Positions 2,356-37,177 of a stretch of DNA of 37,177 nucleotides are shown piece after piece. The position numbers and the translations under genes are program-made. The DNA is from Candidatus Kaiserbacteria bacterium RIFCSPHIGHO2_01_FULL_58_22 (GTDB taxonomy: Bacteria > Patescibacteriota > Minisyncoccia > Phycocordibacterales > UBA2100): assembly GCA_001781445.1 (NCBI GenBank), contig MFLB01000039.1:1-37177 (forward strand), read 5' to 3'. How positions within the stretch are numbered: position 1 is the stretch's first letter; each line of letters starts with the position of its first letter. The notes under the pieces were generated by a model that was not told the origin of the DNA, made no database searches, and worked only from the letters and a program-made list of their open reading frames with translations.

Positions 2356-5300
2356 CTAATCCGAGACGATGAGGTTCACGAGGCGGCCCGGCACGACGAT
2401 CGTACGAACGACCTGTTTTCCGTCCAAGCGAGCCGCAACCGCTCCCCGCGCCGCGGCCTCTTGAGCTTCCTTGTCCGCGTCTGCCGCGACGGATGCCTCT
2501 CCTCTCGTTTTCCCGTTTATCTGCACGGCGATGCGCACGGTTTCGTCTTTGAGCTTTGATACGTCGTACGAAGGCCATTTTTCAGTATGGATCGAACGCA
2601 TCTTTCTTGCTCCCCGTTTATCCTTCGTAGCTTTAGCGAAGGAGGACCAGAGTTCCTCGGTCATATGCGGCGCGAAGGGCGCCAATATCTTCAGGAAACG
2701 GACGAACTGGTCTTTGTTGATGCCTTCCTTTTCTGCGACATTCGTGAACGTCATCATCGCCGCAATGGCGGTATTGAACTTGAACGACTCTATGTCACTT
2801 CCCACTTTCAGTATCGTTTTGTGCAATTGCCGCTCGGTCCCCTCGGCTCCTCGCTCTTCGTTGCCTGCCCCGTAGCCATCCGAGCGAAGCGAGGATGTGG
2901 TACTGGGGTTCGCTCGCTGTCCCAGCCGCCACACGCGTTCAAGGAATCGCCGCGCGCCTATCATGCTCTCCGTGCTCCACGCGATCGAATCGGTGAAGGG
3001 CCCCATGAACATTTCGTACATGCGGAGCGTGTCGGCGCCGTAGGCCTTCACGATGTCGTCGGGATTTATCACGTTGCCGTAGCGCTTGCTCATCTTCTTT
3101 CCGTCGGGCGCCTGGATGAGTCCGACGGAGATCAGCCGCATGAACGGCTCGGGAGTGGAAACGACGCCGATGTCGTGCAAGAATTTGTGCCAAAAGCGCG
3201 CGTAGATAAGGTGGCGCGTCGCGTGCTCCGCGCCGCCCACATAGGTGTCTACCGGTGCCCAGTATTTCTCTTTTTTCTTATCGACGAGCGCTTTTTTGTT
3301 GTTCGGGTCCATGTAGCGCAGGTAGTACCACGAAGAACCCGCCCACTGTGGCATCGTGTTGGTCTCGCGCGTACCCGGACCCTTGCACTTCGGACAGCGG
3401 ACGTTGACCCATTTCGCAATACTCGCAAGCGGCGAGTGCCCCGTGCCGGTCGGTTGGTATGAATTCACCTCTGGCAATTTCACCGGCAAGTCCTTTTCCG
3501 GCACCGGCACGACACCACACTTGGCGCAATGAATGACAGGAATAGGTTCGCCCCAATAGCGCTGGCGGGAAAAAACCCAGTCGCGAAGCTTGTAGGTTAC
3601 CTTTGCGCGACCGAGTTTCCCGGTAATAGCTTTTCTTGCCTCTGCGCTCTCCATCCCGCTGAACTCTCCGGAATTCGCGAGTATTCCCTCCCCTTCGTAG
3701 CAGGCGCGGCCATTGATCCGTACCCACGCGATACGCATATCTTCGTGATTGATAAATTCGTCCATTTCTTTCTTCGTGAGCCATGTTATCTCGTGGTCCG
3801 CTTTTTCCTTTTCTGAAACTTGTTCGCAGGTGTCATCATCCAACGTAAAAAGGAACGGGGTGTAGTGAGCAAATGTATTCCATTTTCGAACAACACTGTA
3901 GTATTTGCCGTGGATCGTGCCGCCAAGCTTTCGCACAAGCGAGGTGTGTACATATCCAGTTTCTTCCCGTATCTCTCTTTGCGCTGTCGCGATCGGTTCT
4001 TCTCCCTCATCAATACCACCCGAAACACAGCCTCGCGTATCGGTGGGCTTATAGCGAACCGCAAGGTACTTGTCTTCGGACCAGTGCTTCACAAAGGCGA
4101 GAATAGCCGGTCGGTCGTGAAAGGGTCCGTCTGCGTGTACAGCATCGAGGCCGGTCGTCCGAACAGCGAGAGGCTCGATAACTTCGACGATAGGCAACTT
4201 GAACTTTTTGGCGAATTCGAAGTCGCGTTCGTCGTGCGCGGGGACTGCCATAATGGCGCCCGTGCCGTAGTGCGCGAGCACGTAGTCGGCGATGAAAATC
4301 GGTATTTTCTTTCCCGTCGCTGGATTAACCGCTTCCACCCCTTCGAGCCGCACGCCGGTCTTCTTTTTTTGTTCCGTTATTCGCTCGAGCTCTGTCTTTT
4401 TGTCCGATAGCGCGATATATCGCACTATTTCATCCTCATTCTTCAGCAAACCTTTTTGCTGGATGGCGAGCCGCACCCAAGGGTGTTCGGGAGCGAGCAC
4501 CATGTACGTCGCGCCAAAAAGCGTATCTGCACGCGTCGTAAAGACCGTGATACTAGGCAGAAGAGCGTTCAAGACCATCGGCTCCTCTTTCCCCATGAAG
4601 TGCTTTTCCTCCGCATTTCCTTCGACCAGACGGGCTCCGAGCTCTTTGGCCAGAAATTTGAGATACGGTATCCGCCGAGTGCCCTCTTGCAGATCCGAGA
4701 GAATAACAGAGAATCCCGCAAGCTTTCTGATTCGTGCATAGTCGACGTCCCAATTGAAATGCTTCTGATACGGGCGCTCTACCGCTCCCGGGAATTTTGC
4801 ATTAACGGCTGATGCGACAAGCATGAGACCAGCGATAGGTCTATTGATCTTTTCGAGAACTTTGAGAGCTATCGCTCCGCCGAGACTGTGGCCGACTATG
4901 ATTGTGCGCTCGTCAATGGTGCACGTATCTAACACCTTTTTCACCTGCTCAGTTTCCTTGGGATTCCAGGAATTTGGCAACTCTGGCACTTGCACCTTCA
5001 ATCCCCTTCTCTCCAGCTCCCCATTTAGCCAAGGAATAAAAGCGCCAATCGGGGATTCCTTGTATCCATGCAGGAGTAGATAATTTGGCTTTGGCGCCGT
5101 CGTATTTTCAAATTCAAGCGGAAAATCTATCTCCGCGCCTTCGCTCCGGCCTATCCAGTTGCGCTGTGATTCTTTGATGTGTTCCTGCCATTCGGGAAGA
5201 TGCGATAGGTCATTGAGGAGCCGTTCGGCGTAGTCAGTGATCCGGAGCATCCACTGTCGCATAGGCCTCTTCTCGACGATTGTGCCGCATCGCTCGCAGG

Positions 5301-5823
5301 CATTGCCGTCGAGGTCTTCGTTCGAAAGCCCAGTCTGACATTTCGGGCACCAATTGATGGGTTCGTTCGATTCGTATGCCAGCCCCTTCTCCAGAAGCTT
5401 CAAGAATATCCACTGCGTCCACTTGTAGTACGAGGGGTCGGTCGTGTTTATTTCGCGGCTCCAATCGTAATCGAGGCCGATCGTCGAGAGTTGCTCCTTG
5501 AATCGCGCGATGTTCTTGGCGACGGCGGCGCGCGGATGCACCTTGTTCTGGATCGCGAAATTCTCCGCAGGCAGGCCGAAGGCGTCCCACCCCATCGGAT
5601 GCAAAACGCTATGCCCCGTCATCCGCTTGTGGCGTGCATAGACGTCGGTCGCGATATAGCCCTTCGGGTGCCCTACGTGAAGCCCTTCCCCCGAAGGGTA
5701 TGGGAACATGTCCAAGACATATGACTTTGGTTTTCTAGGATTCTCTTTGGAACGATAGATCTCCTTCTTCTGCCATTCACGCTGCCACTTTTTCTCTATC
5801 TTTTTGTGGTCATACTTCCGCAT
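2356..5823 (-). CDS. leuS: Leucine--tRNA ligase, enlarged (1155 aa) by in-frame alpha/beta-hydrolase and Nudix modules
   Basis: Has HIGH (HVGH, aa 49-52), KMSKS (KMSKR, aa 910-914), editing-domain motifs TTRADTLFGATY and GAIMAVPAHDERDFEFAKKF, RDWVFSRQRYWGEPIP, and a C-terminal tRNA-binding domain. Extra segments at aa ~237-424 and ~551-712. Confidence 0.95.
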   Translation of the reverse strand: MRKYDHKKIEKKWQREWQKKEIYRSKENPRKPKSYVLDMFPYPSGEGLHVGHPKGYIATDVYARHKRMTGHSVLHPMGWDAFGLPAENFAIQNKVHPRAAVAKNIARFKEQLSTIGLDYDWSREINTTDPSYYKWTQWIFLKLLEKGLAYESNEPINWCPKCQTGLSNEDLDGNACERCGTIVEKRPMRQWMLRITDYAERLLNDLSHLPEWQEHIKESQRNWIGRSEGAEIDFPLEFENTTAPKPNYLLLHGYKESPIGAFIPWLNGELERRGLKVQVPELPNSWNPKETEQVKKVLDTCTIDERTIIVGHSLGGAIALKVLEKINRPIAGLMLVASAVNAKFPGAVERPYQKHFNWDVDYARIRKLAGFSVILSDLQEGTRRIPYLKFLAKELGARLVEGNAEEKHFMGKEEPMVLNALLPSITVFTTRADTLFGATYMVLAPEHPWVRLAIQQKGLLKNEDEIVRYIALSDKKTELERITEQKKKTGVRLEGVEAVNPATGKKIPIFIADYVLAHYGTGAIMAVPAHDERDFEFAKKFKLPIVEVIEPLAVRTTGLDAVHADGPFHDRPAILAFVKHWSEDKYLAVRYKPTDTRGCVSGGIDEGEEPIATAQREIREETGYVHTSLVRKLGGTIHGKYYSVVRKWNTFAHYTPFLFTLDDDTCEQVSEKEKADHEITWLTKKEMDEFINHEDMRIAWVRINGRACYEGEGILANSGEFSGMESAEARKAITGKLGRAKVTYKLRDWVFSRQRYWGEPIPVIHCAKCGVVPVPEKDLPVKLPEVNSYQPTGTGHSPLASIAKWVNVRCPKCKGPGTRETNTMPQWAGSSWYYLRYMDPNNKKALVDKKKEKYWAPVDTYVGGAEHATRHLIYARFWHKFLHDIGVVSTPEPFMRLISVGLIQAPDGKKMSKRYGNVINPDDIVKAYGADTLRMYEMFMGPFTDSIAWSTESMIGARRFLERVWRLGQRANPSTTSSLRSDGYGAGNEERGAEGTERQLHKTILKVGSDIESFKFNTAIAAMMTFTNVAEKEGINKDQFVRFLKILAPFAPHMTEELWSSFAKATKDKRGARKMRSIHTEKWPSYDVSKLKDETVRIAVQINGKTRGEASVAADADKEAQEAAARGAVAARLDGKQVVRTIVVPGRLVNLIVSD

Positions 5824-6046: not shown

Positions 6047-7090
6047 CTAGCGCAACGTGGATTTGCTGAACGGCGGATAGCGTTCCGGGTCTATCGTTCT
6101 GTCGAAGCAGACGTCTCCCGCCCCGTGTTGCCACGAATCGCCTTCGATTCCCTTTTCTCCGGGACCGGCCGCAATGGGCCGAACCATGTACGGATCTCCA
6201 ACTCCCTCTTTGTTGAACGTCGCGCAGAGCTTGAATGAGAGCCGCCCGGTGACCTCATACGCGTATGGCTCGCCGCTCTGCGGGTCCACGGGAAATACGT
6301 AGCCTCCGAGAGGGTCTTTGGCCTCTTCGAGCGTGGCGGGAAGCTTTTCTTTCTGTTGCCAATAATTCACGACCTGCCACTGAATGTTTTGCAGATCGCT
6401 CACCTTTTGGCTGTCGAGGCGAAGAAGGCGTACTTCTGCTGGCGATCCAAGGATAAAGAAGCCGGACGCGATCGCCGCGAGGACGACGAGTCCCGCGGCC
6501 ACTCCGACGGTCGTCGCGCGCGAGGGGTTTGCTTTCCAGTATCCGCGCAGATCGGCAAGGAAATGCAGGAACACAGCTCCCGCTACGAGAAGCAAGACAA
6601 TGACTTTAAGGATAAAGCGCGTCGTAAGCTCGCCGCCGAGAAAATAATTGATGAGCGTGATGAGATCGCCGACCAATGCCGCGCCTGCGACAAACACAGT
6701 CAGTACCAGCGCCCATCGTCGGACCCACAGCTCGCTCTTGATGGGTTCGCGCGCGATGTCGGAGCGAATGAAGCGGAGAAGAACGACCGTGACAGGGACA
6801 AGGACGATGAGCGACGCCATCGCGAAGCGTATCCCCCCGGAGAAAGGATCAACATAATATTCGAGCGGATCCGGGTACGTGCGGTCAATGTATTCGAACA
6901 AAAGCGCGATGAACGAGATGACGCTTCCGTAGAGCGCCACCATCGCGCCCGCCCAGAGAAAGAAATCCTTCGGGGTTACCTTGGGTTTGTCCATACGGAA
7001 ATAGTAAATGGTTATTAGAAAATAGCAAATGGCAGAGATCAAGAATGCAAGAACTCCCCTCCTTCGCGCAAGGCTTCGGAGGGCAAGCAT
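6047..7090 (-). CDS. Integral membrane protein (DUF5671-like N-terminal multi-pass region plus soluble C-terminal domain)
   Basis: About 6 hydrophobic helices in the first ~230 aa, then a hydrophilic domain (...QWQVVNYWQQKEKLPATLEE...). ATG at 7090 lies 3 nt after the ychF stop; the track ORF begins at GTG 7093. Confidence 0.7.
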   Translation of the reverse strand: MLALRSLARRRGVLAFLISAICYFLITIYYFRMDKPKVTPKDFFLWAGAMVALYGSVISFIALLFEYIDRTYPDPLEYYVDPFSGGIRFAMASLIVLVPVTVVLLRFIRSDIAREPIKSELWVRRWALVLTVFVAGAALVGDLITLINYFLGGELTTRFILKVIVLLLVAGAVFLHFLADLRGYWKANPSRATTVGVAAGLVVLAAIASGFFILGSPAEVRLLRLDSQKVSDLQNIQWQVVNYWQQKEKLPATLEEAKDPLGGYVFPVDPQSGEPYAYEVTGRLSFKLCATFNKEGVGDPYMVRPIAAGPGEKGIEGDSWQHGAGDVCFDRTIDPERYPPFSKSTLR

Positions 7091-7092
7091 CA

Positions 7093-8190
7093 CTACGAGT
7101 GCAGGAACTCCATGACGTCTCCGTCTTGCACTACGTATTCTTTGCCCTCGCTCCGGAGCCAGCCTTTCTCCCGTGCCTTTGCAAAAGAGCCTGCTTCAAG
7201 CAGTTTGTCCCAGCGAATGACTTCGGCGCGGATGAACTTGTCGCGGAAATCGGTGTGGATGGCGGCGCCCGCTTCCGGTGCCGTCGAGCCGCGCGCAATA
7301 GTCCACGCGCGGCTTTCTTTCTCACCCGTCGTGAAAAACGAGATGAGATCGAGAAGCTTGTAGCCCGCTTTGATGAGTTCGTCGAGCCCGTCGGCGACGC
7401 CGAGCTCGCGGCGGAAATCCGACTTTTCGTCACTGTGCACGTCGCCAAGCTCGTTCTCGACGCCGGCGTCCACGACGACATACTGCGCGCCGCTCGAATC
7501 GAGAAAATCCTTAAGCTCCCGCCATCGCGGCCCGCCCTCCGCATCAATGTTCAGCGCGCCGCTCTTCTTGTTCAAGACGTAGAGCATGGGCTTCATCGTG
7601 AGCATGTGCAGGGTCTTCGCATTCTCCCGTTCGCCGGCATCGAGCGACACGGAGCGCGCCGGTCTTCCCGCTTGGAGCGCCGGAACGATTTTCCGCAGAA
7701 GGTCGCGCTCGGCGACTAATTCCTTACCTCCCCCCTTTGCATCGCGTTCTACGCGATCGAGGCGCTTCGCGGCGTGCTCCAGATCGGCCTGCACGAGTTC
7801 GAGACCGACGACCTCGATGTCGTAGCGGGGATCCACGGCGCCCGCGACATGATGGATGTCGTCGTCCTCGAATATCCGCACGACCTCCGCTATGGCGTCA
7901 ACGTCCCGGATGTGCGAGAGGAACTGGTTGCCCAGCCCTTCCCCTTCCGAAGCGCCCTTGACCAAGCCCGCGATGTCCACAAACTCGACCGCCGCGGGGA
8001 TCTTCTTTTGCGAACGGGACATTTCGGCGAGCTTGTCGAGACGCACATCGGGCACGGCGACGACGCCGACCGAAGGGTCTATGGTGGCGAACGGATAATT
8101 CGCGATCAAAACGCCCTTCCGCGTCAGCGCGTTAAAAAGCGTCGACTTGCCGACATTCGGGAGCCCGACGATGCCGATACTCAATGACAT
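7093..8190 (-). CDS. ychF: Ribosome-binding ATPase YchF
   Basis: 365 aa. Has an N-terminal P-loop [18 protein letters not shown], the [10 protein letters not shown]2 region and a C-terminal TGS-like end ...[18 protein letters not shown]. Confidence 0.93.
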
Positions 8191-36164: not shown

Positions 36165-36314
36165 GTCACAGCTCTCGCTTTGCTCGGCCGCGACCCCGCC
36201 TCGCCGACAAGCATTCGCTTCGCTCATCTTGTATACCGGCTCCGGCCTTCGAAACCCCTCGTGCCCTACAAAAATATAGTCGCCCATTGCTCCGCAATGT
36301 TCTCCTGATTTTTG

Positions 36315-36387
36315 TGGACCCGAGGGGTTTCGAACCCCTTGCCTCGTCTATGCCATAGACGCGCTCTACCAATTGAGCTACGGGCCC
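36315..36387 (-). tRNA. tRNA-Ala (anticodon GGC)
   Basis: GGGCCCGTAGCTCAATTGGTAGAGCGCGTCTATGGCATAGACGAGGCAAGGGGTTCGAAACCCCTCGGGTCCA has the G3:U70 identity pair, anticodon loop ATGGCAT and T arm AGGGG-TTCGAAA-CCCCT. CCA is not encoded. Confidence 0.92.
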
Positions 36388-37080: not shown

Positions 37081-37152
37081 CCCCGCGTCGTTCAACGGAT
37101 AGGACGCGAGCTTCCGGAGCTCGTAATGTGGGTTCGATTCCTGCCGCGGGGA
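37081..37152 (+). tRNA. tRNA-Arg (anticodon CCG)
   Basis: CCCCGCG-TC-GTTC-AACGGATA-GGAC-G-CGAGC-TTCCGGA-GCTCG-TAAT-GTGGG-TTCGATT-CCTGC-CGCGGGG-A. The cloverleaf has two G:U pairs in the T stem and an unusual C1:G72. Confidence 0.75.
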
Positions 37153-37177
37153 CCGATTATTCCGTTTCAAAAAGCTC

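Follow-up and report, generated by a model that had tools for sequence, protein, structure and literature searches.

A predicted Nudix hydrolase nested in the editing domain of a Kaiserbacteria leucyl-tRNA synthetase, and a Nudix subfamily that appears tied to aminoacyl-tRNA synthetases

What role might a Nudix hydrolase play when it is built into the editing domain of an aminoacyl-tRNA synthetase (aaRS)? The question is raised by the leucyl-tRNA synthetase (LeuRS) gene of Candidatus Kaiserbacteria bacterium RIFCSPHIGHO2_01_FULL_58_22, carried on contig MFLB01000039.1 (assembly GCA_001781445.1), of which positions 1 to 37,177 make up the window, that is, the whole stretch of DNA analysed here. 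An uninterrupted open reading frame (2356..5823, minus strand) encodes a bacterial-type LeuRS of 1155 residues that bears two nested hydrolase inserts. One of these, a Nudix domain of 157 residues (PF00293; aa 551-707; 3703..4173, minus strand), takes the place of a 12-residue loop, residues 364-375, of Thermus thermophilus LeuRS inside the CP1 editing domain, as judged by phmmer against 1h3n. A preliminary description of this DNA had reported a full Nudix box inserted in frame in LeuRS, with the insert at aa 551-712 (nt 3688-4173) and the box at aa 602-624 (nt 3952-4020); these coordinates agree with ours, and the box, Pfam and an AlphaFold2 model concur on the assignment.

The Nudix box, GGIDEGEEPIATAQREIREETGY (3952..4020, minus strand), fits GX5EX7REUXEEXGU when read directly from the sequence. 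The Pfam NUDIX model scores 37.1 bits on the whole protein and 41.6 bits on the insert alone (gathering score 21.1), far more than would be expected of a chance motif match. The structure predicted by AlphaFold2 from an alignment of 31 LeuRS-embedded Nudix copies (alignment A1) does adopt the strand-helix-strand order of the Nudix fold, an α/β/α sandwich, with a mean predicted local distance difference test score (pLDDT) of 95.5 and a predicted template modelling score (pTM) of 0.89. In a Foldseek search of the PDB with this model, 519 structures matched at E<=1e-3, and the 50 listed are without exception Nudix proteins, with TMq values of up to 0.69. Five residues of alignment A1 do not vary, namely E617, E620, E621, G623 and W681. 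Across the 95 homologous domains found at the same site, described below, the strict box GX5EX7REXXEEXG is kept in 84 and the [RK]ExxEE core in 91, at a mean pairwise identity of 35%. An aromatic pair within +15..+19 of the box is present in 83 of the 95 and is represented in the window copy by Y641-Y642 at +17/+18 (3898..3903, minus strand), which lines up with FY in 2azw and with YW in 3i7u. Because the strict box persists despite such divergence, its retention reads as a signature of retained catalysis at this site. Sequence and structure model together thus confirm the insert as a genuine and complete Nudix domain with a canonical box, one that is apparently catalytically competent and whose activity, substrate class and coupling in cis to LeuRS are proposals.

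The host enzyme scores 976 bits against the TIGR00396 leuS_bact equivalog (cut-off 548) and matches T. thermophilus LeuRS (1h3n) at E=5.8e-220 (phmmer). Its catalytic motifs are intact (HIGH as HVGH, aa 49-52; KMSKS as KMSKR, aa 910-914), as are the editing motifs, namely the threonine-rich TTRADT (aa 429-434; nt 4522-4539) and AHDERD (aa 529-534; nt 4222-4239), both encoded on the minus strand within the CP1 segment that separates the inserts. The alignment with 1h3n consists of four blocks, in which query residues 1-240, 425-550, 708-905 and 910-1153 correspond to T. thermophilus residues 1-240, 243-363, 376-579 and 637-876, respectively, with about 184 residues inserted between T. thermophilus residues 240 and 243. 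This first insertion is the second nested enzyme, an α/β serine hydrolase, and the earlier proposal that such a hydrolase accompanies the Nudix domain was borne out by Pfam (Ser_hydrolase) and by a structure model.

Where exactly within CP1 does the Nudix domain reside? The CP1 segment between the inserts (aa 425-550; 4174..4551, minus strand; T. thermophilus 243-363) is matched by the editing-domain model PF13603 over aa 424-553, at model positions 22-144 of 185, and the Nudix domain interrupts the model at position 144, three-quarters of the way through CP1. The remainder of CP1 follows the insert (aa 708-758; 3550..3702, minus strand), aligns with T. thermophilus LeuRS from residue 376 onward, and ends in the linker or hairpin strand RDW..RQRYWG (aa 747-758). 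The preliminary description had placed the insert at the exit of the editing domain, which is roughly right, but the insertion point actually lies inside CP1, in its C-terminal part. Its companion claim, that the two modules occupy the two linker strands of CP1, was refuted by the 1h3n alignment and the Pfam model coordinates, as both QRNWIGRSEG (aa 220-229) and RDW..RQRYWG are free of inserts. The hydrolase insert starts 11 residues past the first strand, and the Nudix domain starts 16 residues past AHDERD and ends about 40 residues ahead of the second. The preliminary description gave some 20 residues for E. coli-type LeuRS at this point, a figure of the right order, and ordinary bacteria (Lachnospiraceae, Treponema, Ekhidna) have 11 or so. 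Sister LeuRS proteins that are devoid of the Nudix domain have 0-15 residues there, and at the junction of these deletion variants the sequence runs from ...EVV straight onto Y.G.G.L.NSG; in P0003 this natural junction reads EVI|YVG. The hairpin strands of CP1 that are left free of inserts are known to be sensitive to mutation (PMC4138327).

The insert is widely present in relatives, which, together with the predicted fold, counters two of the refutations foreseen in the preliminary description, namely the want of a Nudix fold and an absence from relatives. A Nudix domain of about 157 residues occurs at exactly the same site in 95 of the 120 closest LeuRS homologues in a whole-protein search, a prevalence that is overstated in that the homologues were ranked by score to a query carrying both inserts. 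These homologues were drawn from NCBI, JGI, ENA and Logan assemblies, and the source names given are all of Patescibacteria type (Paceibacterota, Parcubacteria, Pacebacteria, Kaiserbacteria, Woesebacteria, Taylorbacteria); a protein identical to the window LeuRS is encoded on an independent ENA contig (P0001). Proteins from the public databases bear automatically assigned names, such as 'alpha/beta fold hydrolase' or 'class I tRNA ligase family protein', and have precomputed Pfam domains. In GTDB species representatives, tblastn with a 367-aa protein segment revealed the insert in 21 of 80 loci, and inspection added a 22nd, from a member of the Gracilibacteria (L024). The records are mostly of Patescibacteria type or carry generic labels, and a few are nominally Gammaproteobacteria or Erysipelotrichaceae. 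The Gracilibacteria copy (L024:4001-5296) is read through five in-frame TGA codons, one of them inside the Nudix box, a feature that fits the reading of UGA as Gly (genetic code 25) and a long residence in this host. A word-indexed homologue search with the isolated 162-aa insert returned no matches, its own parent included, which reflects the sensitivity limit of that tool and is uninformative for short divergent domains.

The subfamily to which this Nudix domain belongs extends beyond LeuRS. An HMMER search of 1.84 billion representatives with the A1 profile yielded 170 clusters at E<=1e-30, and most of the 150 listed are LeuRS or fragments thereof. Five clusters (P0257, P0276-P0279) are prolyl-tRNA synthetases (ProRS) with a Nudix domain. 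The domain is inserted after the anticodon-binding domain and ahead of the C-terminal domain of ProRS, as seen in the class II enzyme P0257; the embedded Nudix scores 132.8 bits against the A1 hidden Markov model (E=7.5e-34 for the whole library), and insert-free relatives of these proteins are named Nanoarchaeota or Woesearchaeota (DPANN). About 27 further clusters are free-standing members of 154-206 aa. Genomic context was looked up for 11 of these, and five adjoin an aaRS gene on the same strand, namely that of LeuRS in three cases and those of threonyl-tRNA synthetase (ThrRS) and ProRS in one each. The three LeuRS-linked members (P0145, P0156, P0159) end 1-10 nt ahead of the LeuRS start, P0272 lies 87 nt upstream of ThrRS, and P0220 lies 15 nt downstream of ProRS. 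A sixth member (P0149) is found between methionyl-tRNA synthetase (MetRS) and an insert-free LeuRS, within five genes, and an unrelated Nudix gene precedes that LeuRS. The four best-scoring free-standing members are all LeuRS-linked. If, by our own estimate, some 5% of genes lie next to an aaRS gene, the binomial probability of at least five such neighbours among 11 is about 1e-4. Two of the free-standing loci share the YchF - DUF5671 - leuS synteny of the window, with the Nudix gene between DUF5671 and leuS; the window's own locus is devoid of a free-standing Nudix gene. Judged by these sequences, the subfamily is tied to aminoacyl-tRNA synthetases in bacteria of the Candidate Phyla Radiation (CPR) and in DPANN-type archaea. 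A 145-aa Nudix protein of a different, MutT-like type (L081:8476-8913), with a score of just 11.6 bits for the A1 profile, stops 5 nt short of an insert-free LeuRS of 823 aa, and adjacency of LeuRS and Nudix genes is therefore not confined to one subfamily.

A search with Nudix-family models, which the preliminary description had proposed, settled the domain assignment and left the subfamily assignment, and with it the substrate, to other lines of evidence. The best profile matches in the PDB are the lupin diadenosine tetraphosphate (Ap4A) hydrolase 1f3y (1.7e-10), the uncharacterised 2azw and the Aquifex Ap4A hydrolase 3i7u (1.1e-9), followed by AvrM14 effectors, CT771 and DIPP1. The Ap4A hydrolases span 1.7e-10 to 5.6e-9, and 2azw, DIPP1, NUDT12 and MutT are separated from the top Ap4A-hydrolase match by no more than 1-4 orders of magnitude. 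The Aquifex enzyme also superposes on the Nudix model in Foldseek (TMt 0.78; root-mean-square deviation 2.6 A), and the fold matches include MutT1/Rv2985, a diadenosine polyphosphatase. An aromatic residue 16-18 positions after the box is reported by Dunn et al. (1999) to mark hydrolases of the ApnA type, and Y641/Y642 fit that position. Dinucleoside polyphosphates are, moreover, the one nucleotide by-product common to LeuRS, ProRS, ThrRS and MetRS. A substrate is not assignable by computation; among single classes, this one has the best support, chiefly on account of that shared by-product, a step drawn from established aaRS chemistry. The idea of Ap4A as substrate, favoured on account of the Ap4A-hydrolase profile matches, the aromatic pair and the repeated fusion or adjacency to several synthetases, fits the evidence and is plausible, if unproven.

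The explanation preferred here, to which we assign a probability of roughly 0.45, is that a folded and catalytically competent pyrophosphohydrolase of the Nudix type occupies a surface loop of CP1, in a LeuRS that is complete in other respects, and represents an aaRS-tied subfamily that acts on an adenine-nucleotide by-product of the synthetases. The nested enzyme would hydrolyse a by-product of the aminoacyl-adenylate reaction, most likely a dinucleoside polyphosphate such as Ap4A or diadenosine triphosphate (Ap3A), to ATP or ADP and AMP near the site of its production. The outcome would be nucleotide recycling and the avoidance of a build-up of alarmones or cap precursors in organisms that salvage their nucleotides.

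How such a domain came to reside in LeuRS may be approached through the modular architecture of its relatives. The 120 homologues display 15 architectures, range from 942 to 1722 aa in length and contain up to three Nudix copies, with modules inserted at four sites in query numbering. Site A, after aa 207, hosts one Nudix domain or two in tandem; site B, aa 241-424, usually a serine hydrolase and sometimes a Nudix domain; site C, aa 551-707, usually a Nudix domain; and site D, after aa 813, a HAD, serine hydrolase or Nudix module. Any module type may occur at several sites, and multi-module relatives include P0010, P0016, P0021, P0040, P0114, P0130 and P0174. Two loci (L017:4001-4996 and L021:4001-5029, one labelled Berkelbacteria) instead carry at site C a module of some 120 aa that is unrelated and matches no Pfam family. 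In another relative (P0089), a DUF559 domain resembling Vsr and restriction endonucleases (PF04480, 1.8e-32) lies in frame after the equivalent of aa 424, beside the hydrolase module, and may hint at cassette movement. In the tandem pairs at site A (e.g., P0016, P0021, P0043), the first Nudix domain is usually canonical and the other nearly always bears the variant box GQ..A.AE..EETG, which is missing the first Glu and the Arg. This variant accounts for 19 of the 44 boxes at site A and recurs in some site-C copies, and it looks like a separate, paralogous type of module whose catalysis may be altered or absent.

The histories of modules and hosts do not run in parallel. Architectures are interleaved on the tree of the LeuRS core, and core identity is uncorrelated with Nudix identity (Spearman 0.0006 over 4557 pairs), a figure to be read with caution in view of how the 120 homologues were ranked. 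A mosaic that is independent of this bias is apparent at the level of segments. The catalytic body of the window LeuRS is 77-92% identical to those of P0003, P0002 and P0004, whereas its hydrolase and Nudix modules are closest to those of P0009 and P0025 (57-73%), the catalytic cores of which are only about 50-57% identical to that of the query; in P0009 alone, the modules are 69-71% identical and the core only 56%. Conversely, cores that are 72-74% identical harbour Nudix domains of only 31-45% identity, and the CP1 segments between the modules have mixed affinities. The core segments of the window gene have a GC content at third codon positions (GC3) of 0.66-0.71, as against 0.55 for the hydrolase and 0.53 for the Nudix domain, and the inserts are thus compositionally distinct, consistent with recent acquisition from a donor of lower GC content. 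The Nudix domain accordingly behaves, in these comparisons, as an exchangeable cassette with a history decoupled from that of the LeuRS core, and exchange probably proceeds by homologous recombination through the conserved LeuRS sequence on either side. Simple vertical inheritance with losses is ruled out as the whole story by the uncorrelated identities and the mosaic.

Several observations weigh against a by-product hydrolase. No NCBIfam equivalog reached its curated threshold, the best being RppH (NF001938 and related models), with 23.6 bits where the cut-off is 116, and fold matches to 2azw, a putative CTP pyrophosphohydrolase, MutT1, ADP-ribose pyrophosphatase and RppH equal or beat those to Ap4A hydrolases. 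Five of the 11 free-standing members lie away from aaRS genes, one of them among genes resembling those of nucleotide salvage. The closest relative, P0003, with 79% core identity, has no Nudix domain, and the module is therefore dispensable for LeuRS; the recurrent variant box means that some copies may be without catalysis; and the ranking of the homologues inflates the apparent prevalence. A rival explanation is a generic housekeeping Nudix enzyme, perhaps a MutT-like sanitiser of nucleoside triphosphates or an ADP-sugar pyrophosphatase, with no mechanistic link to leucylation, for which nesting would provide co-expression or retention in a tiny genome, or would simply reflect near-neutral mobility of cassettes at tolerant loops. 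Free-standing members are called 'MutT' by JGI, the fold matches extend to MutT1, NudI and the putative CTP pyrophosphohydrolase, the module is often lost where LeuRS is kept, unrelated YdeN-like, HAD, DUF559 and 120-aa modules use the same sites, and both the decoupled histories and the lower GC3 of the inserts speak in its favour. What this account leaves unexplained is the presence of the same subfamily in ProRS and of free-standing copies beside LeuRS, ThrRS and ProRS genes far above expectation, together with the LeuRS linkage of all four best-scoring members, and we regard it as unlikely, if a serious contender.

An alternative substrate would be RNA itself. A Nudix enzyme of the RppH or decapping type, directed at 5' ends, at Np4N or NAD caps or at a tRNA-linked nucleotide, could have been recruited by the tRNA platform that LeuRS provides. 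The best NCBIfam matches are indeed RNA pyrophosphohydrolase models, fold and profile matches include E. coli RppH (its Ap4A- and RNA-bound structures among them), the AvrM14 decapping effector and Dcp2, proteins of the tandem-Nudix family match a Nudt16-like model, and every host protein binds tRNA. These scores, however, are all far under the family cut-offs, and features peculiar to RppH were not identified; tRNAs carry a 5'-monophosphate once RNase P has acted; and RppH also cleaves substrates of the Np4A type, so that this proposal overlaps with the by-product hydrolase favoured here. It is considered improbable. Still more so is a module without catalysis, acting as a nucleotide-binding sensor or as a steric element that tunes CP1 movement, editing or partner binding. 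The recurring variant box would suit such a role, and CP1 swings during catalysis (PMC4138327), a swing that a bulky insert could tune, but the window copy is fully canonical, as are most of its highly divergent site-C counterparts. An assembly chimera, an intein or another artefact below the protein level has next to no likelihood and was ruled out by the continuous reading frame, the identical ENA protein, the dozens of assemblies with the same junction and the ordinary insert junctions, with no intein or Hint family among the Pfam matches of the window LeuRS; the Gracilibacteria copy, furthermore, follows the UGA=Gly code of its host.

The second insert of the window LeuRS is a YdeN/RBBP9-like α/β serine hydrolase at site B (aa 241-424; 4552..5103, minus strand), with Pfam Ser_hydrolase scores of 27-31 bits (cut-off 22). 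Its profile matches YdeN (3e-23) and RBBP9 (2e-18) in the PDB, and its AlphaFold2 model (pLDDT 93.9) is matched in Foldseek by YdeN (TM 0.82/0.84) and RBBP9 (TM 0.80). Neither its HG motif nor its Ser/Asp/His triad varies. Acyl-enzyme adducts are formed by RBBP9 with single hydrophobic amino acids (Leu/Ile, Met, Phe, Tyr, Trp) and depend on a free α-amine (PMC8866121). Because this is the chemistry that an auxiliary aminoacyl-ester hydrolase would need, the analogy suggests such an editing-like function for the insert and is offered as a lead. A broader and decidedly speculative extension, which we hold to be rather doubtful, is that CPR and DPANN organisms possess a by-product clean-up toolkit for their synthetases, in which Nudix enzymes for dinucleoside polyphosphates, an RBBP9/YdeN-like aminoacyl-ester hydrolase and a HAD phosphatase would be grafted into four loops of LeuRS or into ProRS, or placed beside aaRS genes, and swapped by recombination.

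Among known systems, the free-standing Nudix Ap4A hydrolases, typified by those of lupin (1F3Y), Aquifex (aq_158; 3I7U) and Chlamydia (CT771) and by human NUDT2, share the fold and the canonical box with the window domain, but the latter is nested in an editing domain, is only about 16-22% identical to them and is known here by sequence and model. The NadM-Nudix enzymes are end-to-end fusions of NMN adenylyltransferase and ADP-ribose pyrophosphatase and likewise join a Nudix domain to an adenylyl-transfer enzyme with products related to the Nudix substrate; the window Nudix differs in being nested and in belonging to another Nudix subfamily and pathway. The YdeN and RBBP9 small serine hydrolases resemble the site-B insert in fold and triad, whereas that insert is nested in the CP1 of LeuRS. 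A class I synthetase that also carries an unrelated enzyme domain is isoleucyl-tRNA synthetase with a GNAT N-acetyltransferase domain (NCBIfam NF040702), although domain family, host and position differ, and in the LeuRS set there are up to five modules at four sites, exchanged between lineages. The core of the window LeuRS aligns end to end with those of other bacterial LeuRS that contain CP1 (T. thermophilus, 1H3N; E. coli, 4AQ7), with motifs intact, but its CP1, itself an inserted domain, hosts two further enzymes. The leucine-specific domain (about residues 580-636 of T. thermophilus LeuRS) is absent, its place falling between aa 905 and 910, at about 3100-3110 of the window.

The Ap4A-type dinucleotides of the cell come mainly from synthetases, and we know of no synthetase that carries its own hydrolase for them. 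Should the nested Nudix domain degrade such by-products, the window LeuRS would be the first aaRS with a built-in side-product hydrolase and would give direct access to Ap4A biology where de novo nucleotide synthesis is lacking. Whatever its substrate, CP1 can evidently host one to several further enzymes, and LeuRS, an essential enzyme of translation, is a hotspot of domain-level cassette exchange in organisms with minimal genomes, which has implications for the evolution of multidomain synthetases, for annotation and for phylogenies of Patescibacteria that rely on LeuRS as a marker. The literature searched contained no description of LeuRS-Nudix, of ProRS-Nudix or of an aaRS-associated Nudix subfamily, and LeuRS-Nudix is not represented by any NCBIfam model. 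In a 2026 survey of domain insertions, PF13603, the editing domain of LeuRS, is classed as insertion-only, with zero instances as a host (PMC13114784).

The surroundings of the gene may be described briefly. Upstream of leuS, and likewise on the minus strand, Pfam identifies a DUF5671 membrane protein (6047-7093) and a YchF GTPase (7093-8190), the former lying between YchF and leuS. A second Nudix gene was looked for in the window and none was found. Three tRNA genes are present, for Glu(CTC) (25791-25863), Ala(GGC) (36314-36387) and Arg(CCG) (37081-37154), and the window yielded no further Rfam families. Within LeuRS itself, the C-terminal region exceeds that of most relatives by about 25 residues, at aa ~965-995 and ~1070-1085, and includes the low-complexity stretch RANPSTTSSLRSDGYGAGNEERGAEG and the basic patch KATKDKRGARKMRS, located at about 2830-2930 and 2570-2620 of the window, respectively.

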